Source: Limimonas halophila
GTDB taxonomy: Bacteria; Pseudomonadota; Alphaproteobacteria; Kiloniellales; Rhodovibrionaceae
Assembly (NCBI RefSeq): GCF_900100655.1
Contig: NZ_FNCE01000001.1
Span: 545,252 to 569,251, forward strand
Reading direction: 5' to 3'
DNA length: 24,000 nt
Part shown: in pieces, positions 4,473 to 20,704 of the stretch
How positions within the stretch are numbered: the first letter of the stretch is position 1
Layout: the number at the start of each line of letters is the position of its first letter
Translations under genes and position numbers: made by a program
Notes under the pieces: generated by a model
Seen by the model: the letters and a program-made list of their open reading frames with translations, nothing else
Databases searched by the model: none
Told to the model about the DNA's origin: nothing

Positions 4473-5148
4473 GGGCAACCTCCGTCAAGGCGGCGGCGAT
4501 CGTCTCCGGGTGGCTGAAGGGCAGCGCGTGGCCGCCGTCGAGCGGGATGAAGCGCGCCGCCGGCATCGCGTGCGCCAGCCGTTCGCCCGCCGCGACCGGA
4601 ACGATGGCGTCCGCGCGGCCGTGGATCACGGCCGCTGGCACCGTGACCGCCGCCGCCGTCGCGCGCAGGTCCGTTTCGGCGAGGTGGTCCAGCCCGTCCG
4701 CCAGCCGCGCGCGCGGCACACCGGTGGTGGCCCGCTCGCGCCAAGCGTCGGCGGTTTCGCCCGCCTCGGGGGCCGCCGCCCGCCGCCAGAAGTCCGCCAG
4801 CACGCGCTCGGGATCGCGCGTTACGCCCAGGCGCATGCTGCGCAGACCGCGCGCGTCCGCGCCTGGATGGTCTTCATCCGCCAGGAAGCGCGCGGGCGTG
4901 CCCACCAGCACGAGGCCCGCGACCGCGTGGGGCTTCCTCGCCGCCGCCGCGAGCGCGAGCTGTCCACCGAGCGACCACCCCACGAGCACGGGCGGCGTGG
5001 CGGCCTGGTCGAGCATGGCGTCCAGCGCCGTCGGCGGCTCGCCGAGCGCGTCCCACCACGCGCACATGACCCCCTGCCATTGCCGGCACACGGCGTTGAA
5101 GGCGCAGGCGTCGCTGCCCCAGCCGGGGATGTAGAGCGGCCACGTCAT
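4456..5148 (-). CDS. bioH: alpha/beta-hydrolase, pimeloyl-ACP methyl ester esterase (BioH-like)
   Basis: 230 aa with the nucleophile elbow GWSLGG and a C-terminal GGHALPFSHP histidine region. It occupies the BioH slot of a bioBFHCD-type operon. Its ATG overlaps the bioF stop as ATGA at 5145-5148. Confidence 0.65.
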   Translation of the reverse strand: MTWPLYIPGWGSDACAFNAVCRQWQGVMCAWWDALGEPPTALDAMLDQAATPPVLVGWSLGGQLALAAAARKPHAVAGLVLVGTPARFLADEDHPGADARGLRSMRLGVTRDPERVLADFWRRAAAPEAGETADAWRERATTGVPRARLADGLDHLAETDLRATAAAVTVPAAVIHGRADAIVPVAAGERLAHAMPAARFIPLDGGHALPFSHPETIAAALTEVARDAGA

Positions 5149-6329
5149 CTCTCGCGCGCCACCCCGCAGACGTCCGCGGCCTCGGCGAAGGCGTCCGCCG
5201 CGCGGTCGAGCAGGCCCGCGTCGTCGTGCGCCAGCGTGACCGACACACGCAGGCGCGCGGTGCCCGGCGGCACCGTGGGTGGGCGCATGGCGCCGCAGAT
5301 GACGCCGCGCTCACTGAGCGCGTCCGCCATCGCCCGCGCCTGCTCGTTGTCGCCGATGTGGACGGGCAGGATGGGCGACTGCGCCGCCGGAACCCGGAAG
5401 CCGCGCGCCGTCAGCCGCGCCGCCAGCCCGCGCGCCACCGCCAGCAGCCGCGCGCCCATCCGGCCGCCGTCTTCGCGAATGCGCCGCAGGGCCGTCTGCG
5501 CCGCCGCCGCGCTCGCGGGCGGCAGGCCCGTCGTGTAGATGAAGGCGCGCGCGTGGTTGATGAGGTAGGCGCGCAGCCGCGCGTCGCAGACCGCGAAGCC
5601 GCCGTAGCCGCCGACCGCCTTGCCGAAGCCGCCGGTGAGCACGTCGGCCCGCACGCCCGCCGCCGCGCACGCTCCCGCGCCGCCGGGGCCGAGCACGCCC
5701 AGCGCGTGCGCTTCGTCGACGATCAGCAGCGCCCCGTGCCGCCGCGCCACGGCGGCGATTTCGGCGAGCGGCGCCACGTCGCCGTCCATGCTGAACACGC
5801 TGTCGGTGACAACGAGCGCGGGCGCGCTCTCGCAGCCAGGGTTTTTGCCCAGCAGGGCGTCCAGGTGCTCGGGATCGTTGTGGCGGTAGCGCTGCCAGCG
5901 CGCCCCGGCCAGACGCACGCCGTCCAGAAGGCTGGCGTGGTTCAGGCGGTCGCAGAACACCGGCGTCCCCCGCCCGGCGAGCGCGCTGAGCACCCCCAGG
6001 TTGGCGAGGTAGCCGCTGCCGAAGACGAGCGCGCTCTCGCCGCCCATGACGGCGGCCAGCTCGGCCTCCAGGGCCTCGTGGACGGGCAGCGTGCCGGTGA
6101 CGAGGCGCGAGGCGGTCGCCCCGGCGCCCCAGGCCCGCGCGGCTTCCGCCGCCGCGTCACACACGACAGAGTCGCGGGCAAGGTCGAGGTAATCGTTGCC
6201 CGCGAAGTTGATGCCGGCGTCCCCCTCCGCTGCCGGCCGGGTCGTTAGGCTGCGCAACAGCCCCTGCTCGGCGCGCTCGCGAAGCGCCTGATCCACCCAG
6301 GTCCGGTTTGCGCTGTCGCTGGCGCTCAC
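5145..6329 (-). CDS. bioF: 8-amino-7-oxononanoate synthase
   Basis: 394 aa alpha-oxoamine synthase with NDYLDL, SGYLAN, DEAHALG and the GGFGKAVGGYGG lysine region. The start is GTG at 6327-6329, with GGAGG 4 nt upstream. Confidence 0.9.
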   Translation of the reverse strand: MSASDSANRTWVDQALRERAEQGLLRSLTTRPAAEGDAGINFAGNDYLDLARDSVVCDAAAEAARAWGAGATASRLVTGTLPVHEALEAELAAVMGGESALVFGSGYLANLGVLSALAGRGTPVFCDRLNHASLLDGVRLAGARWQRYRHNDPEHLDALLGKNPGCESAPALVVTDSVFSMDGDVAPLAEIAAVARRHGALLIVDEAHALGVLGPGGAGACAAAGVRADVLTGGFGKAVGGYGGFAVCDARLRAYLINHARAFIYTTGLPPASAAAAQTALRRIREDGGRMGARLLAVARGLAARLTARGFRVPAAQSPILPVHIGDNEQARAMADALSERGVICGAMRPPTVPPGTARLRVSVTLAHDDAGLLDRAADAFAEAADVCGVARER

Positions 6330-6342
6330 GCCACCTCCGGGC

Positions 6343-7386
6343 TCAGGCCGGCTGCGCGGCGGTCTCGTCCGCGCCCGCTTCCTCGCTCGTGCCCGCGTCC
6401 TCCGGCTCGATCTCCACCTCGAAGCCGAGGTCCTGGATCATCGCCGCCGTCTCCGAGGCGAGCTGGCCGTCGGTGGTGAGGTAGCCCTCCACGAACACCG
6501 AGTTGGCCGGGTAGAGCGCCAGCGGCTGCAGGCTGCGCAGGTTGACCTCGCGCCCGCCGGCCACGCGCACGTCCGCCGCCGGCAGCAGGAAGCGCGCCAG
6601 CGCCAGCACCTTGAGGCAGTAGCGCGGGGTCAGGCCGCTGTCGATGTTTTCGAAGGGCGTGCCCTCGATCGGGATCAGGAAGTTGAGCGGCACGGAGTGC
6701 GGCTCGATCTCGCGCAGGTGGAAGAGCATGTCGACGATGTCTTCGTTGCTCTCCCCTTGGCCGACGATGCCGCCCGAGCACAGCTCCAGCCCCGCGTCCT
6801 GGGCGTTCGCCAGGGTCGCCACGCGGTCGGCGTAGGTGTGCGTGGTGCAGATGTTGGGGTAGTGCCGCTCGGAGGTGTTGAGGTTGTGGTTGAGGCGGTC
6901 CAGCCCCGCCGCCTTCAGGCGCTCGGCCTGATCGCTCTTGAGCAGCCCGATGGACAGGCAGGTGTCGATGCCGACCTCGTCCTTGATGCGCGAGATGACG
7001 CGGCAGAGGTTGTCGATCTCGCGGTTGGTCGGCCCGCGCCCCGAGAGCGCCATGCAGTAGCGCCGCGCGTCCAGATCCTTGGCGTGCCGGGCCTCCTTGA
7101 GGAACTGCTCGTCGTTCCACATGCGGTATTTCTCGATCGCCGCCGTGGAGATCTTCGACTGCGCGCAGTAGTGGCAGTCCTCGGGGCACAGCCCGCTCTT
7201 GACGTTGCTCAGCCGGTGCACGTGCACCTTCGACCCGCGCCGCTGGCGGCGCACGCGGTAGGCGGCGTGCAACAGGGCCAGCAGGTCGTCGTCCGACGAT
7301 TCCAGGACGGACAGCGCCTGCTCGCGCGTCAGCGCGTCGCCGGCGATCGCCGTCTCGGCGAGGGTGTCGAAGCTGGGCTCGGGCAT
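6343..7386 (-). CDS. bioB: biotin synthase (radical SAM)
   Basis: The radical-SAM motif CPEDCHYC and BioB-like YCMALSGRGP and LNHNLNTS regions are present. The ORF track starts at GTG 7440. I prefer ATG 7384-7386 (MPEPSFDTL) because GAGAGGA lies about 8 nt upstream. Confidence 0.9.
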   Translation of the reverse strand: MPEPSFDTLAETAIAGDALTREQALSVLESSDDDLLALLHAAYRVRRQRRGSKVHVHRLSNVKSGLCPEDCHYCAQSKISTAAIEKYRMWNDEQFLKEARHAKDLDARRYCMALSGRGPTNREIDNLCRVISRIKDEVGIDTCLSIGLLKSDQAERLKAAGLDRLNHNLNTSERHYPNICTTHTYADRVATLANAQDAGLELCSGGIVGQGESNEDIVDMLFHLREIEPHSVPLNFLIPIEGTPFENIDSGLTPRYCLKVLALARFLLPAADVRVAGGREVNLRSLQPLALYPANSVFVEGYLTTDGQLASETAAMIQDLGFEVEIEPEDAGTSEEAGADETAAQPA

Positions 7387-7585
7387 CGGGTCGGTCCTCT
7401 CGGGCGCGCCCCGGTTCGGCGGGGCGGTCTCAATTCTCACGCACGTGGCTCGCGGGGATGGGCCGGGCCGGGAACCCGGCGCGAACCGGACGCTAATTCA
7501 AGCCCGCGCCCGCGTCCATGCTGGTTTTCCCACGCGTCACCGCAGTTTTCGCGCGGGTTTTTTCGCACGCGCGCCGCATCTCCGT

Positions 7586-7630: not shown

Positions 7631-8170
7631 ATGCGCGAGCCCGGGGGGCCGATGCCCGACGACACTTTCCGCTGGATGCTCACATGCGAGACGCCGCGCC
7701 TGCGCCGCTTCGCCACGGCGCTGACGGGTGACGCGGAGCGCGCGGACGATCTCGTGCAGGACACGCTGGAACGGGCGCTGCGCAAGCGCCGGCTGTGGGC
7801 CGGGACGGGCAGCATGCGGAGTTGGCTGTTCAAGCTGCTCTACCGCGTGCACCTCAACCAGCGGAGCCGCGCGCGCACCGAGGCATCGGCCCTCACGGCC
7901 GTGGAATACCGGGACACCGGCAGCATGCCGGCCAACCAGGACAGCCACGTCGAGGTGCTCAATGTCTCCGTGGCCCTGCGCGCGCTGCCGGCGGAGCAGC
8001 GCGACGCCGTTCTGCTGGTGGGCCTGGAGGGCATGGCCTACGACGAAGCCGCGGATGTGCTCGGCGTCCGCGTGGGAACCCTGAAGTCGCGCCTCTACAG
8101 GGGGCGCGAGGCCCTGTGGGCGATCCGCCGGGGCGACGTCGCGGCGACGCAGACGAAGGTGCGCTCATGA
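7631..8170 (+). CDS. ECF (group 4) sigma-70 family RNA polymerase sigma factor
   Basis: 179 aa. Region 2 reads ADDLVQDTLERAL...SWLFKLLYRVHLNQ. Region 4 reads LPAEQRDAVLLVGLEGMAYDEAADVLGVRVGTLKSRLYRGREAL. The start could also be the ATG at 7652. Confidence 0.85.
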   Translation: MREPGGPMPDDTFRWMLTCETPRLRRFATALTGDAERADDLVQDTLERALRKRRLWAGTGSMRSWLFKLLYRVHLNQRSRARTEASALTAVEYRDTGSMPANQDSHVEVLNVSVALRALPAEQRDAVLLVGLEGMAYDEAADVLGVRVGTLKSRLYRGREALWAIRRGDVAATQTKVRS

Positions 8171-9087
8171 CGACCGACGATTCGATCACCGATCTGGACC
8201 TGCTGGCCTACGCCGATGGCCGGTTGGACGCCGGACGCGCGGCGCGCGTCGAGGCCTACCTGGCCGAGCGGCCCGCGCTGCGCGACCAGATCGCCGATTT
8301 CGCCCGGCAGAACGCCGACCTGCACGCCTGCTTCGACCGCTACGCGGAAGCCGAGATTCCCGAGCGCATGCGGGCGGTGCTGAACGGTGCGCGCACGGAG
8401 CGTCCGCGCTGGCCGTCGGCGGCGATGCGCGCCGCGGCCGCGGTGGTTCTCATGCTCGCGGCCGGGGTGGGCGGCTGGTACGCGGGCGCCGGCGGCATGC
8501 TTCAGCCCGACGGGTCGCGCGATCTGGTCGCGCGCACCGCAAGCCTGCACGAGGGAGAGCCGGCGACCGAGCCGGTTTCGGCGGGCACGCCCGAAGGTAC
8601 GGCTGTGCTGGACTCGCTTCGCGAGCGTGCCGCGCTGCCGGCCCGGGCGCCGGAGTTGCGCCGGCACGGCTACCGCCTGATGAAGGTCGAGCGCGTCGAG
8701 ATGCAGGGCACGCGCGGCGTGGTGCTGCACTACGACGGTCGCGGGGAGCAGCGCGTGGACGTGGTGCTGCGCCCGCGCTGGGACGAAACGCCGGCGCGCG
8801 TGGAAACCACCACCCGCGGCGACGTGGGCCTCGCGCACTGGCGCGAGGGGCCGCTGGAGGTGGCGGTTGCCGGTCCCCGCGACGAGCGCGAGTTGCGCGA
8901 TCTGGCGCAAGCGCTGCGGCGATCCCTTCGCGCTTCGGGCAGTGGTGCGCCCTCGCAGCTGCGGCCGGACGAACCTTCACTGCAACGCAAACAGGAGGTT
9001 CAGGCCGCCAACGATCCGGACACCATGGTTCTTTCGCCCAGCCTGTCGCCGCAGCCGGCGGCGATCGGGGAAAATGTCCAACCGTGA
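8167..9087 (+). CDS. membrane-spanning anti-sigma factor (single TM, periplasmic C-terminal domain of unknown function)
   Basis: There is an ATGA overlap with the sigma gene stop at 8167-8170. The N-terminus LLAYADGRLDAGRAARVEAYLAERPALRDQIADFARQNADL is the typical anti-sigma domain helix pattern. One hydrophobic segment (AAAVVLMLAAGVGGWYAG) is present. The upstream 124 codons of the 430-aa ORF-track entry lie out of frame over the sigma gene and are ignored. Confidence 0.7.
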   Translation: MTTDDSITDLDLLAYADGRLDAGRAARVEAYLAERPALRDQIADFARQNADLHACFDRYAEAEIPERMRAVLNGARTERPRWPSAAMRAAAAVVLMLAAGVGGWYAGAGGMLQPDGSRDLVARTASLHEGEPATEPVSAGTPEGTAVLDSLRERAALPARAPELRRHGYRLMKVERVEMQGTRGVVLHYDGRGEQRVDVVLRPRWDETPARVETTTRGDVGLAHWREGPLEVAVAGPRDERELRDLAQALRRSLRASGSGAPSQLRPDEPSLQRKQEVQAANDPDTMVLSPSLSPQPAAIGENVQP

Positions 9088-9088
9088 T

Positions 9089-9113
9089 GGAACTTTCGCC
9101 GCGCCGGCCTGTC
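9089..9113 (+). promoter_or_regulatory. ECF-type promoter candidate P2 (GGAAC-N17-GTC) upstream of the DUF4168 gene
   Basis: The sequence is GGAACTTTCGCCGCGCCGGCCTGTC. It starts 2 nt after the anti-sigma stop and ends 81 nt before the ATG at 9195. It is 23/25 identical to P1. Confidence 0.5.
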
Positions 9114-9194
9114 CTCACGATGGATAGCACCCAACGGTGCAGGCCGCCGTCGGCCTGCGACGGTGGCCGATAACCACTGCAAAGGAGTTTCTGA

Positions 9195-9620
9195 ATGACC
9201 CGAGTTGCGACCCGTTCCCTGGCCGCCGCGCTCACGCTCGCCTTCGCTGCGGCCGCCGGTCAGCCGGCCCTGGCGCAGAGCGACAACAGCGGCAATTCCG
9301 GCGGACAGAGCAAGCAAGACGTCAAGACGGACTGGAGCGAGAAGAAGCTGGAGCAGTTCGCCACCGCCGCGACCGACGTGAAGGAGGTCTTCGAGGAGTA
9401 CCGCCCGAAGATCAAGAACGCCGAGAACGCCGATCAGGCGAACAAGATGCAGAAGCAGGCCAGCGACGATGCCGCCAAGGCGGTCAAGAGCTCCGGCCTG
9501 AGCGTTCAGGAATACAATCGCATCAATCAGGCGATCCAGGCGGACAAGGGCCTGCGCGACCGCGTGATGAAGATCATCCGCAAGCAGCAGGGCCAGGGTC
9601 AGGGCCAGGGCCAGCAGTAA
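9195..9620 (+). CDS. secreted DUF4168-like protein with C-terminal Gln-Gly repeat
   Basis: AAGGAG lies 7 nt upstream of the ATG. The signal peptide is MTRVATRSLAAALTLAFAAAAGQPALA/QS. The body is helical and Lys/Glu-rich, with the FxxAxxxV...Y pattern seen in DUF4168 proteins. The protein ends QQGQGQGQGQQ. Confidence 0.65.
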   Translation: MTRVATRSLAAALTLAFAAAAGQPALAQSDNSGNSGGQSKQDVKTDWSEKKLEQFATAATDVKEVFEEYRPKIKNAENADQANKMQKQASDDAAKAVKSSGLSVQEYNRINQAIQADKGLRDRVMKIIRKQQGQGQGQGQQ

Positions 9621-9884
9621 AGCGGCGGCGCTGACCGGGTCGCGGTGGCCGAAACCGCCGCCGCGCCCGCGTCCAACTGCCTCGTCCCCCGACCCCCGCC
9701 GCGGGCCGGCACGGTGCTGCCATGCCGGCCCGCGGTCTGTTGTGGCCTTGGCGCGCCCACCTCGGCATCCTGCCGGAACGGGCGCGGCCGCGGCCGGTTC
9801 CGCGATCGGCCGCCCCAGCCGCGGGGCGCCTGACGCCCCGCTCGCGCGGCGTTCGGATTGTCACAAGCGGCGAAGGAGATGCGC

Positions 9885-11039
9885 ATGGCCCCGCAGCGCG
9901 GAGGTGCAAGCCGCGATCCGGTCCGTCTGGCCATTATCGGCCTGGCGGCCCTGGTGGTGCTGATCCTGGTCATCGGGTTCGGGGTCGTGCGCGACGCCGG
10001 CTTCTTCGGCATGGCCGACCCGGTGCGATCGATCGTCTTCCCGGATCTGAAAGGCCAGCTGGAGCGCGTCGAGCGCGTGGAAGTCGCTGGCCCGAAAGGC
10101 GAGGTCACGCTGACTCGCGACGGGGATGGCTGGTCCGTCGTGCAGAAGAATGGCTACCCCGCGCAGGCCGAGCAGATCACCGCGATGCTGAACGCGATCA
10201 CCGGCATGCCGGCGCTGCAGCGGTTGGATACCGGGGAAGCGCAATTCGACGGCCTGGGCGTGGCCGCGGACAGCGAAGAGGGCACGCGCGTCACGCTGTC
10301 GACCGGCGAGGGCGAGCGTCTGCGCACCATCCTGATCGGCATGGAGAAGGCGGCGCCGGGCGCCGAGGACCTTGAGGCATATTACGTACGGGCGAGCGAC
10401 AGCCAGACGGTCTGGCTGGCGGACGCGGATTTGGCGTTCCCCGCCGATCCGATGGCCTGGCTCGATACCGAGGCCTTCGCCGTTCCCCGCGCGCGCATCC
10501 GTGCCGTCAAGACGGCGCCGGCCAGCGGCCAGCCCGTGCACATCCGCCGCGACGGGCCGGAAGACGCCACCTTCGCCGGGGTCGGCCTGCCGTCGGACAT
10601 CGAGTTGGAAGGTGACTGGGTGCTCGGCGAGCTTGTCGTGCCCTTCCAGTCCGTGCAGTTCTCGGACGTGCGGCGCGCTGACGAACCGCTCCAGCCCGGG
10701 GGTGACGAGCAGGGTTACGTTACCACCTTCGACGGCGTGAAGATCTGGTATACCCTCGAATCGCGCGACGGCGGGCAGTGGGCGCGCTTCGCCGTGGAAT
10801 CCGTCGCCAAGACCACCGCCGACGCCGAGCAGGGCGCGGCAGAAGACGGCGAAAACGGGCCGCCCGTCACGGCCGAAGACCTGAACACGCGCCTCAGCCG
10901 CTGGCAGTTCCGCCTGCCCGAGTTCCACGCCCAGCGCATGAGCCGGTCGATTGCCGACCTGCCGCGCAAGGGCGTGGGGGCGACCGAGGGCGCGACGACA
11001 GCGCCGGCGGACGCGGATGCCGAAGGCGGCGGCGACTGA
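9885..11039 (+). CDS. DUF4340-like membrane-anchored periplasmic protein
   Basis: It has an N-terminal anchor (LAIIGLAALVVLILVIGFGVV) and repeated beta-rich modules (VTLTRDGDGWSVVQKNGYPA, YYVRASDSQTVWL), as in DUF4340 proteins. The ORF track starts at TTG 9858. ATG 9885 has AAGGAG 6 nt upstream. Confidence 0.6.
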   Translation: MAPQRGGASRDPVRLAIIGLAALVVLILVIGFGVVRDAGFFGMADPVRSIVFPDLKGQLERVERVEVAGPKGEVTLTRDGDGWSVVQKNGYPAQAEQITAMLNAITGMPALQRLDTGEAQFDGLGVAADSEEGTRVTLSTGEGERLRTILIGMEKAAPGAEDLEAYYVRASDSQTVWLADADLAFPADPMAWLDTEAFAVPRARIRAVKTAPASGQPVHIRRDGPEDATFAGVGLPSDIELEGDWVLGELVVPFQSVQFSDVRRADEPLQPGGDEQGYVTTFDGVKIWYTLESRDGGQWARFAVESVAKTTADAEQGAAEDGENGPPVTAEDLNTRLSRWQFRLPEFHAQRMSRSIADLPRKGVGATEGATTAPADADAEGGGD

Positions 11040-11178
11040 CCAGCCAGCCGCGGGTGTGCCGTCCGGCCGCGATCGCCACGGCGCGCATCCGGCGACGGAG
11101 GCCCGTGACGCATCAGAGCGGTGCGGCCTTCGGCGTCCCCGGGGCGTGAGGATCGGGCAGGGACGCACCGGCCGCCCA

Positions 11179-11946
11179 TCACGATCGGCGCTTGCGCCGC
11201 GGTGCCCGGCCGCCCAGCCAGTTGGTCAGGCCGGTGATCGCCAGGGCCACCGCGGCCAGGCCGACGAGGTCCACGACGAGCACCCCGGCGGTGCCGAAGA
11301 GCCGGCCGCTGTGCAGGTCCAGCAGCAGGCGCGACCACGGAATGTGTGGGCGCCCCGCCAACTCAGCGAGGCGGGCGCGCACCTCGGCTGGCGGCTCGCC
11401 GGGCTGCGACCAGGTGTCGGGGCAGGACGTCTCGGACCAGGAGACGACGCCCGGCCCGGCGCGGTGGCAGCCGTTGGCGGTGCGCAGCACCACGCCGCCG
11501 TCCTTAGCCCGCGCCAGCGCCGTCGGTTCGCCGGGCAGCGCCGCCGCGCCCAGACTTTCCACCAGCCGGCCGTCCGGGGTCAGCAGCACCAGGGACGTCG
11601 AACCGGCGGCGACCAGCACGCGCGCGCTTGCCACCGCGCCGACGGGTGGCCCGGCGATGTCGGTCACGCGCTCGCCGTCCAGAACCAGCGTGCCGCCGGC
11701 CCAGCCGAGCCAGCGCCCGTCCACGCGGTAGGCGCGTGTCCGCGCCGCTGCGTCGTCGTGATACAGGCGCAGCAGCCAACCCCGGTGCAGCTCGGCGTCA
11801 TCCAGGCCCAGGGTTGGGCTGTGGTTGATCAAAACGCCCGTCACGGCCAGCAGCACCAGCACCGCGCCGGCCGCCAGCCCCACCCAGCGGTGCAGCTTCA
11901 GGTTCCAGGCGCGCAGGCGCTTGCGCCGCCGGTCAGCTCTCGCCAT
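11179..11946 (-). CDS. PepSY-associated transmembrane protein (PiuB/FoxB-like family)
   Basis: 255 aa. The N-terminus RKRLRAWNLKLHRWVGLAAGAVLVLLAVTGVLI is the PepSY_TM signature. A second TM segment lies at the C-terminus, after LLLDLHSGRLFG. The gene overlaps the upstream FMN-binding gene by 14 nt. Confidence 0.7.
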   Translation of the reverse strand: MARADRRRKRLRAWNLKLHRWVGLAAGAVLVLLAVTGVLINHSPTLGLDDAELHRGWLLRLYHDDAAARTRAYRVDGRWLGWAGGTLVLDGERVTDIAGPPVGAVASARVLVAAGSTSLVLLTPDGRLVESLGAAALPGEPTALARAKDGGVVLRTANGCHRAGPGVVSWSETSCPDTWSQPGEPPAEVRARLAELAGRPHIPWSRLLLDLHSGRLFGTAGVLVVDLVGLAAVALAITGLTNWLGGRAPRRKRRS

Positions 11947-12484
11947 CGCCGCCGTCCGCGCCGGTCACGGCGCCGTGTAGGACGAGCGCCATCTCGGCGA
12001 TGTTGGTGAGCGCGCGCACGCTCAGCGTGGCGCCGGAGATGCCGTCGATGTAGCGGTCCAGCCCGTCGCGCGCGGCGTTGAGCGTGGCGCCGTCGAACTG
12101 CTGGGTGAAGAAGTCCTCGCGCACCTCCCAGCCGCGGCTTTCCCGGTAAATCAGGACCTTGATGCGCTGCACCGCGCCGTCCTCGACGACGACGCCGGTG
12201 GTGATGGGTTCGTGCTTGCCGATGCGTTCGAGGATCCAGGCCGTGCGGTCGCCCCGCTGCCAGTAGCGCATGCGCAGGCTGTTGGGCTCGTCGCCCAGCA
12301 CGCGCTTGAGCCCGGCTTTCACCTCGCCGGTGATCCAGAGCACCTCGTCGCTCGGCGGCTCGCCGTCGAAGGCGCCGGCGATGAAGGCGTCCGGCTCCTG
12401 GTACACGTCCGCCGCCCACGCGGGCAGGGCGAGTGCGAGCAGCGCAAGCCCGATCAGAACCGGGCCGGTCGGGACGGAACGCAT
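11933..12484 (-). CDS. secreted FMN-binding domain protein (ApbE substrate-type)
   Basis: ATG 12482-12484 has GGAGG 6 nt upstream. The signal peptide is MRSVPTGPVLIGLALLALALPAWA/AD. The FMN_bind motif IDGISGATLSVRA contains the [ST]GA[TS] flavinylation threonine. Confidence 0.75.
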   Translation of the reverse strand: MRSVPTGPVLIGLALLALALPAWAADVYQEPDAFIAGAFDGEPPSDEVLWITGEVKAGLKRVLGDEPNSLRMRYWQRGDRTAWILERIGKHEPITTGVVVEDGAVQRIKVLIYRESRGWEVREDFFTQQFDGATLNAARDGLDRYIDGISGATLSVRALTNIAEMALVLHGAVTGADGGDGES

Positions 12485-12544
12485 GACGGCCCTCCTTCGG
12501 GGGTTCGGGGCCGGACGGCGCGGCCGCCCGGCCCGCATGCGTGG

Positions 12545-13885
12545 TCAGAACTGCAAGCCGAGGGCCAGGTTGAAGCTGCCCTCGTCGTCGCGGCTGTCTT
12601 CGTAGGTCTGGTGGGCGTAGTTGGCCTTCAGGACCATGTTGGGATCGAGCCAGTAGTTGGCGCCGACGTTGAACTCGGTGAAACGGCTGTCGATGGCGTC
12701 GCGGCCCGCCTGATCGTCGATCATGGAGACGCGGCCGAAGACGCCCAGCTCGCCGGGGCCGACGTTCTGGAAGGTGTAGCTGGGCTGCAGGTACCAGCCC
12801 CACTGCTCGTCGCGCCCGAAGCCTTCCAGCGACACCGTGGACGCCGTGCCGTCCTCGTCGAAGTCGATCTGCTGCTGCACGTCGTCGTGGAAGTCCCAGC
12901 GCGCGTACATGGCGCGGAAGCCCCACGGCCCGCGTTCGATGTCGGCGTGGGTCTCGAACAGCGTCGCCTCGACGTCCTCGCGGTCCTGGGTCACGTCCTC
13001 CTGGTACTGTCCGGTCGCGGACAGCGTCACGCCCGGCATCCCGGTCCACTGCAGGCGCAGCGTCCCGGCGCCGGATTCGGCCGTGGCGTTGGAAGCGGAC
13101 TGCGTGGACGCGGCGGCGTTGAAGGCGTTGCCGGCTTCGCCGCCCTCGGCGCCTTCCGCGCCGGTCAGCGAGGCGTCGAGCCCGGTGTGGATCATGGCGT
13201 CGTAGCTGAAGCCGCCGCCGAGCTGACCGCGCACGCTGGCCGAGGCCTCCCACCAGGTGGTGGGCAGGATGCGGCGCTCCACGATGGGCCGCTGCGTGCC
13301 GTAGAAGGTGTTGGGCTCGTGGGTTTCGTTGATAACGCCCACGGGGATCAGCTCGACACCGCCGCGCACCTCGTGGTTCTGGGCGATGTCGTAGGCGGCC
13401 CAGAGCTGCTCCAGCTCAACCTCGCCCTCGCTGTCCTCGCCGCCGAAGACGAGCGCGTTCTCCACTTCCAGTTCGGAGAAGAAGCGCAGGTCCTCGTTGA
13501 ACTGGTGGCCGACCTCGAGGACAAAGCGCTTGGCGGTGGCTTCGGCGTCGCCGTTGCCGACCTCGCCGCCTTCGCCGCCTTCCAGGGCGTTGTCCCCGAT
13601 GTAGTGGACCTCGCCGTAGCCGCCGATCTGGGTGTTCTCGAACCAGCCGGACGGCCCCTGGCGGGCCTCCTTGGCGACGTTCTGAACCATGTCGCCGGTG
13701 GCTTCGACCTTGGCCTCGGTCTCCTTCTGCTCGCCTTCCAGCTGGTCGATCCGCTCCTGCTGCTGCTGGATGATCTCCCACATCCGCTCGCGGGAGGGCA
13801 GGTCGTCGGTCTGCGCCCGGGCCTGGCCCGCCGTCATGGCGGCGGCGACCAGGGCCGAGGTCATCAGCAAGCTGCTGCGTCGCAT
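12545..13885 (-). CDS. outer-membrane beta-barrel porin with N-terminal coiled coil (OprO/P- or DcaP-like)
   Basis: These are the last 446 codons of the 830-aa ORF-track entry. The signal peptide is MRRSSLLMTSALVAAAMTAGQARA/QT. A coiled-coil stretch (IIQQQQERIDQLEGEQKETEAKVE) is followed by alternating beta-strand patterns. The protein has the OMP-type terminus LALGLQF. Confidence 0.75.
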   Translation of the reverse strand: MRRSSLLMTSALVAAAMTAGQARAQTDDLPSRERMWEIIQQQQERIDQLEGEQKETEAKVEATGDMVQNVAKEARQGPSGWFENTQIGGYGEVHYIGDNALEGGEGGEVGNGDAEATAKRFVLEVGHQFNEDLRFFSELEVENALVFGGEDSEGEVELEQLWAAYDIAQNHEVRGGVELIPVGVINETHEPNTFYGTQRPIVERRILPTTWWEASASVRGQLGGGFSYDAMIHTGLDASLTGAEGAEGGEAGNAFNAAASTQSASNATAESGAGTLRLQWTGMPGVTLSATGQYQEDVTQDREDVEATLFETHADIERGPWGFRAMYARWDFHDDVQQQIDFDEDGTASTVSLEGFGRDEQWGWYLQPSYTFQNVGPGELGVFGRVSMIDDQAGRDAIDSRFTEFNVGANYWLDPNMVLKANYAHQTYEDSRDDEGSFNLALGLQF

Positions 13886-13945
13886 GGGATACCCCCTTGG
13901 TTGTAGCGCCCGCCGACCGTGATGGCCGGCGCGCGCCTCCGTAAT

Positions 13946-13964
13946 GCGAATGCGACGCATTTGC
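13946..13964. promoter_or_regulatory. Fur-box-like palindrome 1, proximal to the porin operon
   Basis: The sequence is GCGAATGCGACGCATTTGC, with arms matching 8/9 around a central A. It matches the classical GATAATGATAATCATTATC consensus at 11/19 positions and is 16/19 identical to box 2. It lies 61 nt from the porin ATG. On the minus strand it fills the 17-nt spacer between TTGCAA and TACGGA. Confidence 0.4.
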
Positions 13965-14074
13965 AACACGCCTTCTGTCCGGTTACAACCCGGCTGTGGC
14001 TTGCGGCGGACGCGCCGCGCACCGGGGCATGTCCCGCTTTGACGCGGGGCGCCGGAGCGTGCCGCGACCATCTT

Positions 14075-14093
14075 GAGAATGCAAAGCATTTGC
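14075..14093. promoter_or_regulatory. Fur-box-like palindrome 2, proximal to pepM
   Basis: The sequence is GAGAATGCAAAGCATTTGC, with a core of TGCAAA-GCA-TTTGCA. It matches the classical Fur consensus at 13/19 positions. It lies 60 nt from the pepM ATG. It overlaps a possible TTGAGA-N17-TAGCGT promoter. Confidence 0.4.
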
Positions 14094-14152
14094 AATAGCG
14101 TCCCGAACGCCGGGTGGCCGGATGGCCGGCCGGCGCGGGGAAGGGGGAGCCC

Positions 14153-15097
14153 ATGACGCTGCACATCGACCAGGAAAGCGCGCCCGCGACGAGTCGCCTG
14201 CGCGCGTTGCTGCACGCCGGCGCGCCCATTCCGGTGATCGACGCCTACGACGCGCTCTCGGCGCGCATCGTCGAATCGGCGGGCTACCGGGCGATCTGGG
14301 CCTCGGGCCTGGGTATCTCGGCGTCCTTTGGGCTGCGCGACAACAACGAGGCGTCGTGGACGCAGATCCTCGACTCGCTGGAGCTGATGGCGGAGGCCAC
14401 GAGCGTTCCCATCCTGGTCGACGGCGACAGCGGCTTCGGCAACTTCAACAACGTCCGCCGCTTCGTGAAGAAGATCGGCCAGCGCGGCCTGGCGGGCGTG
14501 TGTATCGAGGACAAGGCTTTCCCGAAGGCCAACTCCTTCGCCGAGCGCACGCACGAGCTGTGCCCGGCTGGCGAGTTCTGCGGCAAGATCCGCGCGGCCA
14601 AGGACAGCCAGCCTGACGACGACTTCGTCGTGGTCGCGCGCACCGAGGCGCTGATCGCCGGGCACGGGCTGGACGCGGCGCTGGCACGGGCGGAGGCGTA
14701 CCGCCACGCCGGGGCGGACGCCATTCTCGTCCATTCCAAGGCCACGACCGCGGAGGAAGTGGCCGCCTTCGCCGCCCGCTGGGGCGGCCGCGCGCCGCTC
14801 GTCGTCGTGCCCACGACCTACGCGGATACGCCGGCTGACACCTTCCAGCGCATGGGCGTGTCGCTGGTCATCTGGGCCAACTTCACGCTGCGCGCAGCCA
14901 TCCAGGGGATCGAGAACGCCTGCGCCGCCCAGCAGGCGAACGGCGGCGCGCCCGAGCCCGGCGACGCGCGCTACGCGCCGCTGAAACGCGTCTTCGAGCT
15001 GACCGACGAGCAGGAGCTGCGCGCGGCCGAGCAGCACTACATGCCCGCCGCCGAGGACGGTCCAGCGCCCGCGCGCCTGCGTGCAGCCGGGTCCTGA
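14153..15097 (+). CDS. pepM: phosphoenolpyruvate mutase
   Basis: The protein has an isocitrate lyase/PEP mutase fold and carries the PepM-diagnostic EDK-x5-NS motif (IEDKAFPKANSF). ATG 14153 is preceded by AAGGGGGAG. The ORF track starts at GTG 14114. Confidence 0.88.
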   Translation: MTLHIDQESAPATSRLRALLHAGAPIPVIDAYDALSARIVESAGYRAIWASGLGISASFGLRDNNEASWTQILDSLELMAEATSVPILVDGDSGFGNFNNVRRFVKKIGQRGLAGVCIEDKAFPKANSFAERTHELCPAGEFCGKIRAAKDSQPDDDFVVVARTEALIAGHGLDAALARAEAYRHAGADAILVHSKATTAEEVAAFAARWGGRAPLVVVPTTYADTPADTFQRMGVSLVIWANFTLRAAIQGIENACAAQQANGGAPEPGDARYAPLKRVFELTDEQELRAAEQHYMPAAEDGPAPARLRAAGS

Positions 15098-15108: not shown

Positions 15109-16290
15109 ATGCACGAACCCGGTGCGCTGCTCGACACGCTCGCCGCCCACGGCGTGGATTTCGCCGCCGGAGTGCCGTGCTCGCTCCAGGGCGGGGTGTT
15201 CGCCGCGCTGGAGCAGGGGCGCGCGGATATCCCCTATGTGGCTGCCAGCGGCGAAGGGGAGGCGGTCGGCATTGCCGCCGGCGCCTGGCTTGCCGGGCGG
15301 CGGCCGGCGGTGCTCCTGCAGAACTCGGGCCTGGGCAACACCGTGAACCCCCTGGCGGCGCTCACGCAGCCCTTCGGGATTCCAGTGCTGCTGTTGGTGT
15401 CCTGGCGCGGGCAGCCGGGCACGGGCGACGCGCCGCAGCACGCCGTCATGGGCGCGGCGACCCACGCGGTGCTGAGCGATCTGGGCATCGCGCACGAAGA
15501 GCTGGCGGAAACCCCGGACGGCGTGGCGGCGCAGCTCGCCCGCCTGACGGCGTGGATGGACACCGAACGGCGCAGCGCCGCCCTGATCGTGCCGCCCGGC
15601 CGGATCGCCGAGCACGACGCGGGCACGGCATCACGGGTGAGCGCGGTCGCGGACGCGGACCCCGCACGCCGGGAGCCGGCCCCGCACCGGGATTTTCGGG
15701 CCGGCGGAGCGCCGCCCGCTCGTGCCGAGACCCTCAGGGCCGTCGCCGAAACCTTGCCGCCGGAGGCCGCCGTCGTCGCCACCACGGGCAAGATCGCACG
15801 CGAATGCTACGCGCTCGCCGACCGGCCGCGGAATTTCTACGTCACCGGCGGCATGGGCAGCGCCGCCGCCATTGGGCTGGGCATCGCCCGCGCGCAGCCG
15901 GCGCGGCCGGTCGTGGTGCTGGACGGCGACGGCGCGGCGCTCATGCGCCTGGGAACACTGGCGACCGTGGGGGCACAGGCCCCGGCGCGGCTGACCCACG
16001 TGCTGCTGGACAACGGCGCGCACGATTCCACGGGCGGGCAGCGCACCGCCAACCCCGGCGTCGACTTCGCCGCCGTCGCGCGCGCCTGCGGCTACGCCGC
16101 CACGGCCGCCTGCGACACCCGCGACGGCCTTGCCGAGGCGCTGCGCGCACCGGACGGCCCGGCGCTGGTCCATGCGCACGTGGCAACCGGGGCGCTGCCG
16201 AAGCTGGGCCGCCCACAGGAAACGCTGCCGGAGCTGGCCGCGCGCATGCGCGCGCACCTGACCGCCACGGAGGACTCCCCCGATGCCTGA
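15109..16290 (+). CDS. ppd: phosphonopyruvate decarboxylase (ThDP-dependent)
   Basis: 393 aa. The N-terminal PYR domain reads GVDFAAGVPCSLQ...LQNSGLGN. The C-terminal PP domain has the GDGAALM...NGAHDSTGGQ ThDP motif. The gene lies 11 nt downstream of pepM. Confidence 0.88.
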   Translation: MHEPGALLDTLAAHGVDFAAGVPCSLQGGVFAALEQGRADIPYVAASGEGEAVGIAAGAWLAGRRPAVLLQNSGLGNTVNPLAALTQPFGIPVLLLVSWRGQPGTGDAPQHAVMGAATHAVLSDLGIAHEELAETPDGVAAQLARLTAWMDTERRSAALIVPPGRIAEHDAGTASRVSAVADADPARREPAPHRDFRAGGAPPARAETLRAVAETLPPEAAVVATTGKIARECYALADRPRNFYVTGGMGSAAAIGLGIARAQPARPVVVLDGDGAALMRLGTLATVGAQAPARLTHVLLDNGAHDSTGGQRTANPGVDFAAVARACGYAATAACDTRDGLAEALRAPDGPALVHAHVATGALPKLGRPQETLPELAARMRAHLTATEDSPDA

Positions 16291-17740
16291 CGCCGCATCC
16301 GCCCGCGAACCCGCGCCCGACGCCTCGGCCGCGGCCGAACCGGGCGGCTGGCCCGCCGTGAACGTGCCGCGCTCGCACGCGCCCGGCGTGGTCTGGCCGG
16401 CCGTGCCGGACTGGCGCCAGGCGGTGGTCCTGGGGCTGCTGCACCAGTTCAACCAGGCGCAGTGGTGGTCGCCGGACGACCTGTGGCACTGGCAGCGCGC
16501 CCAGGCCGCGCGGCTGATCCTGCACGCCCAGAAGCACGTGCCCTTCTACCGCAAGCGCCTGAAGCGGGTGCCCATCTTGCGCGACGGCACCGTGCCGGAA
16601 GGGGCGTGGCGCCGCATCCCGTGGCTGCGGCGCGAGGACATGCAGAATCAGTACGAGGCCCTGTGCAGCCAGGCGATCCCCGAAGGCCACGGGCGCGTGT
16701 CCGCCGTGCATTCCTCGGGCTCGACCGGCCGGCCCATCAAGGCGCTGCGCACGCAGCTCTCGGTGCTGTTCTGGGAAGCCTTCACGCACCGCGACCACGA
16801 CTGGCACGGCCGCGACCGCAACCAGACGGTCGCCGTTATGCGCCACGCGGGCGAGGGGGACGACCCCTATCCCGAGGGCACGCGCGCCCGCAACTGGGGC
16901 AAGGAGCCCACGGCCGTCTACGACACGGGGCCGTGCGTGGCGCTCAACCTCAACACGCCGTTGGATCAGCAGGTGGAGTGGCTGCAGCGCCAGCAGCCCG
17001 CCTATCTGCTCACCTTCCCCTCGAACGTCGAGCGCCTGGCCCGGCACTGCCTGGAGACCGGCGCGCGCATCCCGACGCTGCGGCAGGTGCAGCTCATCGC
17101 CGAGGTGGTGCGCCCCGAGCTGCGCGAGCTGGTGCGGGCGGCCTGGGGCGCCGAGGTGGTGGACACCTACAGCTCGCGCGAGGCCGGGTATCTGGCGCTC
17201 CAGTGCCCCGAGCACGAGCACCTGCACGTGCAGAGCGAGGGCGTCATCGTCGAGGTGCTGAAGGACGACGGCACGCCCTGCACCCCCGGCGAGATCGGGC
17301 GCGTCGTGGTGACGCCGCTGCACAACTACGCCATGCCGCTGATCCGCTACGACATCGGCGACTACGCGGAAGTGGGCGAGCAATGCCCGTGCGGCCGGGG
17401 GCTCCCGGTGCTGCGGCGCGTTCTCGGGCGCGCGCAGACCACCTTCGTGCTGCCCGACGGCAGCCGGCGGTGGACGCTGCTGTCCAGCGGCGAGATCCGC
17501 GAGCTGCTGGCGATCGGCCCCATCCGGGGCTATCAGTTCGTGCAGACAACCACGGACCATGTCGAGGCGCGGCTGGTCGCCGACCGCGCGCTCACGACCG
17601 ACGAGGAAGAGCAGGTGCGCGGCTGGCTGCGCCACAAGCTGCAGCATCCCTTCGCCGTCACCATCGCCTATCGCGACGAGCTGCCGCTGACGGCCGGCGG
17701 CAAGTTCTTCGACTTCATCTCGGAGGTTGCCGCGCCATGA
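16283..17740 (+). CDS. PaaK / coenzyme-F390-synthetase / CapK-like adenylate-forming ligase (ANL superfamily)
   Basis: 485 aa. It carries the AMP-binding motif SSGSTGRPIK, the YSSREAG and PLIRYDIGD regions, and a C-terminal GGKF. GGAGGA lies 8 nt upstream of the ATG. The gene overlaps the ppd stop by 8 nt. Confidence 0.75.
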   Translation: MPDAASAREPAPDASAAAEPGGWPAVNVPRSHAPGVVWPAVPDWRQAVVLGLLHQFNQAQWWSPDDLWHWQRAQAARLILHAQKHVPFYRKRLKRVPILRDGTVPEGAWRRIPWLRREDMQNQYEALCSQAIPEGHGRVSAVHSSGSTGRPIKALRTQLSVLFWEAFTHRDHDWHGRDRNQTVAVMRHAGEGDDPYPEGTRARNWGKEPTAVYDTGPCVALNLNTPLDQQVEWLQRQQPAYLLTFPSNVERLARHCLETGARIPTLRQVQLIAEVVRPELRELVRAAWGAEVVDTYSSREAGYLALQCPEHEHLHVQSEGVIVEVLKDDGTPCTPGEIGRVVVTPLHNYAMPLIRYDIGDYAEVGEQCPCGRGLPVLRRVLGRAQTTFVLPDGSRRWTLLSSGEIRELLAIGPIRGYQFVQTTTDHVEARLVADRALTTDEEEQVRGWLRHKLQHPFAVTIAYRDELPLTAGGKFFDFISEVAAP

Positions 17741-18729
17741 CCACACGGCGGACGCTTCTCGGCACGCTCGGCGGCCTCGCCGGCGCGGCCGTGTTGCCCT
17801 GGCCGCTGGCGGCGGGTGAGCGCGCACGCCGCGAACCGCTGACGTTCATGGGGGTGTCGGGCCGCGTGACCCTGGCGGACCCCGGTGACGGCCGCGTCGA
17901 GGCCGCGCTGGCGCAGGTGCGCCGCGAGCTGCGGCGCCTGGAAGCGGCCGTGAGCCTCTACGATCCAAACAGCGAACTCTCGCGCCTCAACCGCGACGGC
18001 CGGCTGGCCGGGGCCTCGCCGGCGCTGCGCGCGGTGCTGGACCGGGCGTTGGCGGTCGCGCGGGCCACGGACGGCGCCTTCGATCCCACGGTGCAGCCGC
18101 TGTGGGAACTGCACGCGCGTTTCTTCCGCGATGCGAACGCCCCCGCGCCCCCGCCGCAGCTGCTGCGCGAGCGCGCGGCCGGGCTGGTCGATCATCGGCG
18201 CGTGCGCGTGGACAGCGATGGCGTGGCGTTCGACCGGCCCGGCATGGCGGTGACGCTCAACGGCCTGGCGCAGGGCCGCGCCACGGACCTCGTCACCGAA
18301 ACGCTGCGCCGTCATGGCCTGCACCGGCACCTTGTGGATCTGGGCGAATTCAGCGCCCGCGCCGGAAACGACGGCGAGCCGTGGCGTGTGGGCGTGGCCG
18401 CGCCGGCGGGCGGGCGGCTGACGCTGGTGCGCACTGTCCCGCTGACGTCGGGTGCGCTCGCCACCTCGGCAGGCTACGGCACACCCTTCGACGCCGAAGG
18501 CCGGCACCACCACCTCTTCGATCCCGCGACCGGCGGCAGCACCACGCGCCACGCCAGCGTCAGCGTCACCGCGCCCGACGCTGCCACCGCGGACGCGCTG
18601 TCGACCGCCTTTTCGGCCATGCCCACGGGCCGCATCGCCGCCGTGGTCGCGGACCGGCCGGGGCTGGGCGCGCTCGTCGTGGATCACGCCGGGGCGGTAG
18701 AAACCTTCGGCCGCTTTGCGGCGGCGTGA
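17737..18729 (+). CDS. apbE: FAD:protein FMN transferase (ApbE family), Tat-exported
   Basis: There is an ATGA overlap with the ligase stop. The twin-arginine signal is MTTRRTLLGTLGGLAGAAV. ApbE motifs are FDPTVQPLWELH, LNGLAQGRATD and TSAGYGTPFDAEGRHHHLFDPATG. The first 425 codons of the 755-aa ORF-track entry lie out of frame over the ligase gene and are ignored. Confidence 0.85.
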   Translation: MTTRRTLLGTLGGLAGAAVLPWPLAAGERARREPLTFMGVSGRVTLADPGDGRVEAALAQVRRELRRLEAAVSLYDPNSELSRLNRDGRLAGASPALRAVLDRALAVARATDGAFDPTVQPLWELHARFFRDANAPAPPPQLLRERAAGLVDHRRVRVDSDGVAFDRPGMAVTLNGLAQGRATDLVTETLRRHGLHRHLVDLGEFSARAGNDGEPWRVGVAAPAGGRLTLVRTVPLTSGALATSAGYGTPFDAEGRHHHLFDPATGGSTTRHASVSVTAPDAATADALSTAFSAMPTGRIAAVVADRPGLGALVVDHAGAVETFGRFAAA

Positions 18730-18739
18730 CGGGCTCAGC

Positions 18740-19840: not shown

Positions 19841-20186
19841 CTTGCAGTTGGACGCCGCCGCGACCCCATGCACTCGGATGGGCGAGCCGCGCACACCGCT
19901 CGGATCGACGTACCTGATCGGGATTACAAGTTGACGAATGCCGCGCCGACAACCGCGCTGGCATCACTGACGCAGGCCATAAAAATGGCTGGGGGACCAG
20001 GAAGCGCTCCCTCCACCGATAAATTCTTTGTTTTTCAATTTCTTAGCGAGTTGGTCCATCCTTGTGTGGACAAGCGCTGTGGACTCCCGCTGTGTCATTG
20101 CCACGTCCCCTCACTGGGTGGCTTATTCGTGATGCGAAGCCCATGGCTAGGACTACCCAGAGTACACGGTAATTGATGGCGCAAAG

Positions 20187-20704
20187 TTAGAATAGCTCGT
20201 TCGGGGTCTCGATAACGTTGCGGGCGACGTGCGGGGTGACGCCCTGTTCGCGCAGCTCCGCCACAAAGTCCTTGGTGTCGTAGCCTTTGTCGGCGCCGAG
20301 CGTTCGCCTTGCGTGTCGGGCATGTGCAGCGCGGCCATTCTCTTCGTAGGCGGGGTGCGCACGTCCACGACGCGACCGTGCCTGTTCTTGGTGAACACAC
20401 GATCCATGTAAGCGAGTCCCGATGTTTGGCCCGCGGCTTTGTGGAACAGATGTAAACCCGGATCGGCGCTCGAGCGGCTGGTGGCGTTAGAACGGCGTTC
20501 GCCGCGGAAAAACTCCGCCCATGTTGCACGGGTCGGTCGCCCCGCAATCCCAGGTCCGTAACCGCAGTTGTCGTTCCCACTCTCACGATCGACTGGATAG
20601 AAGTTCCCAACCAACACCTAAGCTTGGATCAGCGCGCCGCCGACCGAGCGATGGTCCAAACTCAACAGCGCCTTCGCGCGCTCATTCTCCAGTACCACCG
20701 TAAG
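20187..20704 (-). pseudogene. decayed internal fragment of an IS5/IS1182-family DDE transposase
   Basis: The minus-strand translation reads TVVLENERAKALLSLDHRSVGGALIQA*VLVG...FFRGERRSNATSRSSADPGLHLFHKAAGQTSGLAYMDRVFTKNRHGRVVDV. After a frameshift it continues TLGADKGYDTKDFVAELREQGVTPHVARN and ends abruptly. There is an in-frame TAG where Trp is expected. The N-terminal part and the C-terminal roughly third of the protein are missing. Confidence 0.7.

Follow-up and report, generated by a model that had tools for sequence, protein, structure and literature searches.

Introduction

PepSY-like flavinylated systems were defined bioinformatically by Meheust et al. (2021, eLife, PMC8238504), who proposed that they act in the reduction and assimilation of iron and that Fur represses them in some species. 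Most of the published clusters (2833 of 3220) use a DUF2271 substrate, often together with DUF4198 (PMC8238504). The enzyme ApbE, which attaches flavin mononucleotide (FMN) to such substrates, recognises the motif D-x-x-[S/T]-G-A-[S/T], and its general base is His257 (PMC12052999). On the membrane side, FoxB binds two b hemes by way of conserved His residues at both faces of the membrane (bioRxiv 10.1101/2021.01.28.428567). The present analysis concerns a locus of Limimonas halophila (contig NZ_FNCE01000001.1, nt 545,252–569,251; this stretch of 24,000 nt is called the window, and positions given below are those of the window). At this locus, an operon of three genes that specify a porin, an FMN_bind protein and a PepSY_TM protein (together, the triad) lies divergent to a phosphonate operon that includes apbE.

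An earlier reading of the same DNA (the original prediction) had proposed that the FMN_bind protein and ApbE form an extracytoplasmic flavinylation pair split across the two operons, with a link to iron and a dedicated coiled-coil porin. Every step of that interpretation which could be tested in silico is supported. The porin/FMN_bind/PepSY_TM operon probably constitutes an iron-starvation-induced, TonB-independent module for reductive iron acquisition, that is, a periplasmic ferric reductase. Judged from sequence comparison and structure models, the flavoprotein, ApbE, the porin and the PepSY_TM protein most likely represent a periplasmic iron-reducing system that is widespread yet uncharacterised.

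The genome (3.04 Mb in 26 contigs) is rated 100% complete, and the window has a G+C content of about 72%. Genes were annotated from matches to Pfam and NCBIfam hidden Markov models against curated cut-offs. The order of the minus-strand operon is porin, FMN_bind, PepSY_TM, with a gap of 60 nt between the first two genes and an overlap of 14 nt between the last two. That of the plus-strand operon is phosphoenolpyruvate (PEP) mutase, phosphonopyruvate decarboxylase, a ligase, apbE and 2-aminoethylphosphonate (AEP) transaminase, and here apbE overlaps the preceding ligase gene by 4 nt and the AEP transaminase gene by 14 nt. The two operons are separated by a control region of 267 bp (nt 13886–14152). 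Coordinates of all features are collected in Table 1.

Results and Discussion

The FMN_bind Protein and Its Flavinylation Motif

The second gene of the triad had been predicted to specify a secreted protein of 183 amino acids carrying the sequence DGISGATLSV, and its start codon, export signal, Pfam match and motif conservation all agree with this. The Shine-Dalgarno sequence AAGGAGG is found 6 nt ahead of the ATG at nt 12484. An upstream ATG at nt 12538, which would give a form of 201 amino acids, was dropped in favour of this start on the basis of the Shine-Dalgarno sequence and of the homologue alignment, which also begins there. Residues 1–24 (MRSVPTGPVLIGLALLALALPAWA) were judged by inspection to be a Sec-type signal ending in AWA. 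The Pfam FMN_bind domain (PF04205) covers residues 89–167 (35.9 bits versus a cut-off of 22), and all 20 homologues examined match it as well.

Within this domain, D147-G-I-S-G-A-T153 fits the ApbE recognition motif. Residues G151, A152 and T153 do not vary among the 20 homologues aligned, and the GAT core is present in all of the 120 listed database homologues, with the Asp replaced by N or H in seven. In the AlphaFold2 (AF2) model, which has a predicted local distance difference test (pLDDT) score of 82.5, a predicted helix (residues 156–174) follows the acceptor Thr. As there is no Cys in the mature protein, FMN would be its only plausible redox cofactor. The motif by itself is not informative at the genome scale, with nine matches in frames rich in G+C at third codon positions, which is about the number expected by chance, but only this copy lies within an FMN_bind domain. 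Motif, domain, signal peptide and invariance across homologues are, when taken together, not a chance combination on this evidence, and Thr153 is the predicted acceptor of covalent FMN. The eight other genome-wide matches, about as many as expected by chance, were rejected as substrates; two of them, judged by eye from the flanking residues, are FtsH-like and acyltransferase-like cytoplasmic proteins.

A second element, QF-x-G-A-T-L, precedes the true site (residues 129–137; nt ~12074–12100). It reads D-Q-F-T-G-A-T in some homologues (e.g., P0006 and P0011) and there agrees formally with the ApbE motif. Such homologues might carry two flavins, or the element might be the ordinary QFxG of FMN_bind domains.

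ApbE and Its Predicted Pairing with the FMN_bind Protein

The only ApbE of the window was expected to be a twin-arginine protein of the opposite operon, about 5.2 kb away. This is correct (the start codons of the two genes are 5253 nt apart), and the protein proves to be the sole ApbE of the genome. It matches the solved ApbE structures 6NXI, 5MGY and 3PND at E-values of 5e-24 to 4e-23, and its H259-L-F-D-P-A-T-G aligns with S-H-I-I-D-P-T-T-G of the Vibrio cholerae enzyme, so that H259 would, from its position, be equivalent to His257 (PMC12052999). The protein begins MTTRRTLLG, with the twin-arginine motif TRRTLL at nt 17743–17760 and no lipobox Cys, and TatC of the twin-arginine translocation (Tat) pathway is present in the genome. 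Triad-linked ApbEs of other lineages mostly carry RR motifs.

The whole genome encodes exactly one ApbE, one FMN_bind protein and one PepSY_TM protein, and neither DUF2271 nor NqrB/RnfD was found anywhere in it. Since the genome is rated complete, the pairing of ApbE with the FMN_bind protein follows by exclusion. Across 41 relatives, the two families co-vary almost perfectly (ApbE in 23 genomes, FMN_bind in 22). One relative (G004) has two ApbE and two FMN_bind genes, with one ApbE beside each substrate system; one of these pairs is in a separate cluster on contig C1 (nt 79997–82818), while the other is orthologous to the arrangement described here (locus L093). Exclusion, co-occurrence and shared compartment together support the predicted pairing.

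One of the two G004 ApbEs adjoins a long FMN_bind protein (an open frame of 859 amino acids), and the pattern in this genome is one transferase per system.

Shared Fur-Like Operators

Two Fur-like boxes, one ahead of each operon, are the predicted operators common to both (nt 13946–13966 and 14075–14095). Scored with a position weight matrix built from 10 sites, all of them outside the window, box 1 reaches 29.1 bits and box 2 32.9 bits, and both are among the approximately 12 distinct top sites in 3.04 Mb. Other top sites precede the genes for an FbpA-like binding protein and FbpB-like permease, for Bfr and Bfd, and for a PiuC-type hydroxylase, as well as those for a TonB-dependent receptor with Peripla_BP_2, an ATP-binding cassette (ABC) ATPase and a DUF6746 protein. 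Because the same operator stands ahead of each, matched expression of the two operons is to be expected.

Both boxes are found again in the corresponding intergenic regions of locus L091, where the flavoprotein is 85% identical, and of G004/L093, which belongs to another genus. A canonical Fur box (no more than five mismatches) is found upstream of the porin gene in 21 of 72 other loci, compared to 0.3 expected from shuffled sequences, and the density of such boxes is 0.83/kb in this position versus 0.03/kb in the rest of the same loci (about 28-fold). The proposed link to iron is, therefore, strengthened by Fur-like operators ahead of both operons here and of orthologous operons elsewhere.

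Predicted iron-regulon sites were located at C10:479–482 kb, C15:390–392 kb and C7:28–37 kb (loci L094–L096), and one such site precedes the gene for an unannotated secreted protein of 306 amino acids. In a Thiohalobacter contig (L006), genes for ferritin and Bfd directly flank the triad (nt 11381–12130 of that contig), with FecCD/ABC and TonB-dependent receptor genes nearby (nt 16001–20522). A search with FeoB_N was unspecific, being positive in 14 of 14 control genomes through generic GTPases, and was of no use for recognising a ferrous importer.

The PepSY_TM Partner

The last gene of the triad specifies a PepSY_TM protein (PF03929; 45.8 bits versus a cut-off of 28.8); each of the 24 orthologues in the alignment matches both PF03929 and PF16357. 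The AF2 model (pLDDT 90.5) has two long transmembrane (TM) helices and a beta-rich periplasmic domain at about residues 70–173. Among 65 sequences, H19 and H212 are 100% conserved and H42 is conserved in 92%. The PepSY_TM profile matches FoxB (7ABW) at an E-value of 2.5e-6. In this alignment, TM1 pairs with helix 1 of FoxB and weakly with helix 3, while the last helix pairs with helix 4 and weakly with helix 2. Since its two helices match both halves of the internally duplicated FoxB, the protein corresponds to one half of it and, as far as the alignments indicate, is a half-unit variant and no FoxB orthologue. By analogy, a homodimer could bind two b hemes in the manner of FoxB.

Conservation and Spread of the Triad

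The flavoprotein family comprises more than 5000 database clusters, with at least 588 confirmed matches in contigs taken as one genome per species, and thousands of metagenomic proteins. Synteny was read in 80 species-genome loci from among these matches, loci being scored where the contig reaches far enough. A porin gene immediately upstream and a PepSY_TM gene immediately downstream, both on the same strand as the FMN_bind gene, were found in nearly all of the 80. The taxa represented are Gamma-, Alpha- and Betaproteobacteria, Verrucomicrobia (Puniceicoccaceae/Coraliomargarita) and an acidobacterium. Among relatives of L. halophila the triad is patchy, being present in two of 41 genomes.

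ApbE is encoded within 10 kb of the triad in about 13 of 85 loci, where its gene usually follows that of the PepSY_TM protein directly or takes its place (L007, L014 and L059). The division of the flavinylation pair between two operons, on which the original prediction was built, is real at this locus; it is not special to this genome, however, as separation of substrate and ApbE is the usual state of the module. The feature particular to this locus is the shared operator.

Proposed Mechanism

Iron limitation would lead to joint derepression of both operons. ApbE, exported in folded form to the periplasm by the Tat pathway, would move FMN from flavin adenine dinucleotide (FAD) onto Thr153 of the FMN_bind protein. 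The PepSY_TM protein may dimerise into a FoxB-like bundle of four helices, in which the paired H19 residues and the paired H212 residues (perhaps with H42) would ligate two b hemes. These hemes could pass electrons from the cytoplasmic side or the quinol pool through the inner membrane to the flavinylated periplasmic protein, which would then reduce Fe(III) species let in by the dedicated porin, and Fe(II) or labile iron would be released for uptake. The components would in this way make up a complete route from the outer to the inner membrane. The position of apbE in the neighbouring operon may be seen as a regulatory solution, with no sign of a separate function.

Several observations weigh against this model. 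A scan of nt 10900–14300 for consensus promoters and terminators found none, including no strict sigma-70 promoter, and the genome has three Fur-family genes, any of which is a candidate for binding the boxes. In a Foldseek search of the PDB, the AF2 model of the FMN_bind protein found no solved FMN_bind entry (best E-value 0.7), and a sequence profile of the protein returned nothing significant from the same database; the protein is therefore assigned to the FMN_bind family by its Pfam match and its motif. Although ApbE is encoded elsewhere in the genome in all 31 of the checked triad-bearing genomes that lack it within 10 kb, this is weakly diagnostic because many triad genomes likely have Nqr or Rnf. 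The PepSY_TM protein has two helices and not the four of FoxB, no match to the PepSY domain (PF03413) was found in any of the 24 orthologues, and heme binding would require the putative dimer. Finally, PepSY_TM relatives may act on copper, a metal to which the PepSY_TM protein CrpH has been linked (PMC13038864).

Alternative Functions of the Triad

The last of these points leads to a reading in which the triad carries out redox chemistry in the periplasm on something other than iron, for example in the reduction of Cu(II) for oxidase assembly, as has been proposed for CrpH, or in the repair or reduction of a periplasmic or envelope component. Control by iron would then be indirect, as in the case of a flavoprotein that spares iron-rich electron carriers. 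PepSY_TM proteins are functionally diverse, and the triad operon includes neither a ferrous-iron importer nor a TonB receptor. Replacement of iron proteins by flavoproteins at low iron is an established theme: flavodoxin, for instance, replaces ferredoxin under iron limitation. A non-iron function is, however, rather unlikely. Fur-like boxes precede the triad operon not only here but in many unrelated lineages, genes for iron uptake and storage in this genome bear the same operator, one orthologous triad locus has ferritin, Bfd and FecCD genes on its flanks, and the characterised PepSY_TM relatives are ferrisiderophore reductases. These observations favour the reductive iron-acquisition module.

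The Phosphonate Neighbourhood

The plus-strand operon, which has a Fur-like box ahead of it, contains a complete biosynthetic core for AEP (PepM, Ppd and AEP transaminase) as well as the ligase gene and apbE. Control of phosphonate synthesis by iron would be out of the ordinary.

The divergent pairing of the triad with PepM, Ppd, ligase, ApbE and AEP transaminase genes is kept in L091, and occurs with a different gene order in G004/L093. In L111, the triad stands between the ligase gene and the genes for the transaminase, PepM and Ppd, while in L005 the ligase gene (product 67% identical) is alone beside the triad. Within the family, the triad and the orthologues of the ligase and PepM are found only in this genome and in G004, i.e., they are present or absent as a unit, and a true PepM is also encoded by relatives without the triad. 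Taken together, the gene arrangements support a coupling of triad and phosphonate genes that is specific to the lineage. Two further candidate relationships were rejected. The ligase homologue P0126 (829 amino acids) is not a fusion of ligase and ApbE, having only an AMP-binding match, and the ligase family in general does not track the triad or ApbE, since other members are found in unrelated contexts.

These arrangements bear on the idea that all eight genes form one iron-controlled, TonB-independent uptake system based on a phosphonate. An AEP-derived metallophore, made by PepM, Ppd and AEP transaminase and coupled by the CapK/PaaK-like ligase to a carboxylate, would bind iron, and the ferric complex would enter by the OprO/P-related, anion-type porin and be unloaded reductively by the flavoprotein and the half-FoxB cytochrome. 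The triad, the phosphonate genes, the ligase gene and apbE are neighbours, though variously ordered, on four distinct contigs (the window, L091, G004/L093 and L111), which speaks for such a system, as do the lone ligase gene next to the triad in L005, the presence or absence of the block as a whole in the family, and the iron boxes ahead of both operons. Set against this, none of the 80 species-genome loci has a PepM match within 10 kb, a single one (L069) has a weak AEP-transaminase-like match, and the scheme comes without an identified exporter or product. A phosphonate metallophore is judged unlikely.

The Porin

The first gene of the operon specifies a protein that matches Porin_4 (29.7 bits versus a cut-off of 27) and not PF07396, whereas 9 of 20 orthologues match Porin_O_P (PF07396; best E-value 2e-14). 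Solved porins in the PDB were not matched by sequence. The protein has a beta-barrel; its N-terminus (MRRSSLLMTSALVAAAMTAGQARA) includes a signal peptide, and its C-terminus, GLQF, ends in an aromatic residue. A helical segment near the N-terminus (MWxIIQxQQxxIxxL, then KVEAT) is conserved across orthologues and may form a coiled coil. With regard to the dedicated coiled-coil porin of the original prediction, its dedication to the system is well founded, as it is the conserved first operon gene in nearly all of the 80 genomes, while the coiled coil itself keeps the standing of a structural suggestion.

The close pairing of porin and flavoprotein in nearly all of these loci could also point to an outward electron conduit (MtrAB- or PplA-like) that feeds extracellular Fe(III) minerals or shuttles. 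The triad is often found in lineages that cycle sulfur and iron (such as Gallionella, Sedimenticola, Thiogranum and Thiohalobacter), and flavinylated PplA works in extracellular electron transfer (PMC8238504). Such a conduit is nonetheless very improbable: the barrel portion of the porin is about 370 amino acids and is related to Porin_4/Porin_O_P, and Fur control suggests assimilation over respiration. Going by the known sizes of OprP- and MtrB-type proteins, a barrel of this length is far smaller than the MtrB-type sheaths and would be too small for a folded protein of 17 kDa.

Hardly tenable is the view that ApbE does not serve the FMN_bind protein but acts as a periplasmic FAD pyrophosphatase or flavin-trafficking enzyme (as Treponema Ftp) or within the phosphonate operon, which would leave the FMN_bind protein with a non-covalent flavin or none: apbE is indeed embedded, by overlaps at both ends, between the CapK-like ligase and AEP transaminase genes, an arrangement kept in L091 and G004, and some ApbE homologues hydrolyse FAD (PMC4767422), but ApbE has a Tat signal while the other four products of its operon are without an export signal, the substrate Thr is invariant in 120 of 120 homologues, ApbE and substrate are each the only one of the genome, and other lineages have apbE inside the triad operon, directly after the PepSY_TM gene or replacing it.

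Gene Map and Surroundings

Table 1. Features of the triad locus and the divergent phosphonate operon in the L. halophila window.
Feature	Position (nt)	Strand	Description
PepSY_TM protein ('half-FoxB')	11179–11946	minus	255 aa, two TM helices
FMN_bind protein	11933–12484	minus	183 aa plus stop; predicted to be flavinylated by ApbE and to carry electrons in the periplasm
Flavinylation motif DGISGATLSV	12017–12046	minus	predicted FMN-phosphoester site Thr153, codon 12026–12028
Sec-type signal peptide of FMN_bind protein	12413–12484	minus	residues 1–24, cleavage between AWA and AD
Porin	12545–13885	minus	446 aa; first gene of minus-strand operon, start ATG at 13885
Fur-like box 1, GCGAATGCGACGCATTTGCAA	13946–13966	unassigned	21 nt; predicted operator, 61–81 nt upstream of porin start codon
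Fur-like box 2, GAGAATGCAAAGCATTTGCAA	14075–14095	unassigned	21 nt; predicted operator, 58–78 nt upstream of pepM start codon
PEP mutase (PepM)	14153–15097	plus	NCBIfam PEP_mutase 312 bits, just below cut-off of 319.55
Phosphonopyruvate decarboxylase (Ppd)	15109–16290	plus	NCBIfam Ppyr-DeCO2ase 377 bits
CapK/PaaK-like adenylate-forming ligase	16283–17740	plus	CapK_C annotation taken from homologues
ApbE (FAD:protein FMN transferase)	17737–18729	plus	330 aa; Pfam ApbE 197 bits; fourth gene of operon
2-Aminoethylphosphonate:pyruvate aminotransferase	18716–19840	plus	NCBIfam PRK13479 422 bits, PhnW-AepZ 418 bits; last gene of operon

Directly after the plus-strand operon the G+C content falls to 57–67% (nt 20000–24000), and this part includes open reading frames without Pfam matches. 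It also carries the C-terminal remnant of a tyrosine recombinase (nt 20735–21061, minus strand) and the N-terminal fragment of an insertion sequence (IS)-type transposase (nt 23458–23895, minus strand). The drop in G+C and the recombinase and transposase remnants suggest that the eight-gene block borders a horizontally acquired region, and a position at the edge of such a region fits the patchy distribution of the block in the family.

On the other side, a DUF4340 gene (nt 9858–11039) converges on the PepSY_TM gene. Further to the left (nt 7631–9620) is a gene for an extracytoplasmic function (ECF) sigma factor (matches to PhyR_sigma2 and Sigma70_r2/r4), after which come a putative anti-sigma factor gene and one for a secreted DUF4168 protein. 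The left part of the window (nt 378–7440, minus strand) is occupied by a biotin operon (bioB, bioF, alpha/beta hydrolase, methyltransferase, bioD and bioA) and then an ELM1-family gene.

Significance

Little is understood of the ways in which Gram-negative bacteria can reduce and import iron in the absence of TonB-dependent siderophore receptors, and the same is true of the wiring of PepSY_TM reductases to their partners; to our knowledge, the electron donor of FoxB is still unknown. A triad that is compact and strongly conserved offers a minimal, genetically tractable system for periplasmic electron transfer from flavin to iron, and with its one ApbE and one substrate this genome makes a clean test bed. 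The locus also illustrates how a shared operator, in place of a common operon, can link a cofactor-attaching enzyme to its substrate.

Comparison with Known Systems

Among the papers searched on FMN-binding and PepSY proteins, porins and iron, none was found that describes the triad as a unit. Several characterised systems resemble parts of it.

OprO and OprP, the phosphate-selective porins (PF07396), are similar in size to the porin of the triad, and just under half of the orthologous porins examined match their family, but neither the conserved coiled-coil-like extension at the N-terminus nor the fixed pairing with a flavoprotein is a feature of OprO/P. NqrC and RnfG share with the flavoprotein the FMN_bind domain, the D-x-x-[S/T]-G-A-T motif and the expected ApbE-dependent phosphoester FMN. 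They are, however, membrane-anchored subunits of large ion-pumping complexes that are absent from this genome, whereas the protein described here would be soluble after signal cleavage and has an N-terminal part specific to its family (RxRYW, AWILExIGK). The PplA/FmnB system of Listeria likewise has a flavinylated FMN_bind protein outside the cytosol, which is served by a flavin transferase of its own and acts as terminal reductase for ferric iron. It differs in being Gram-positive, lipid-anchored and fed by Ndh2, demethylmenaquinone (DMK) and EetAB, and it includes no porin or PepSY_TM protein.

FoxB and its relatives (FsrB, FpvG, HiuB; 7ABW) are similar to the PepSY_TM protein in having HR...G where the first helix ends on the cytoplasmic side and H-[SG]-G-R before the last helix, and in their iron-regulated context. 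FoxB has four helices in a single chain, two PepSY domains, a TonB-dependent receptor and no known flavoprotein partner, while the half unit described here has a beta-rich periplasmic domain in place of PepSY and is coupled to a porin and a predicted flavinylated protein.

The closest relationship is to the PepSY-like systems (PMC8238504), which are defined operationally by a PepSY_TM or PepSY_TM_like_2 gene beside that of an exported ApbE substrate, and this is the arrangement found at the present locus. A cluster of Emcibacter, with a Tat-ApbE next to an OprO/P-type porin followed by FMN_bind, is included unremarked in the supplementary table of that study (PMC8238504). In three respects the locus departs from the published systems. 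The substrate is an FMN_bind protein, DUF2271 being absent genome-wide and DUF4198 unmatched among the Pfam-scanned open reading frames of the window; the membrane partner has two helices compared to the three given in PMC8238504; and the first gene of the operon is a porin gene, a component without mention in the main text of PMC8238504 or in the 2024 follow-up.

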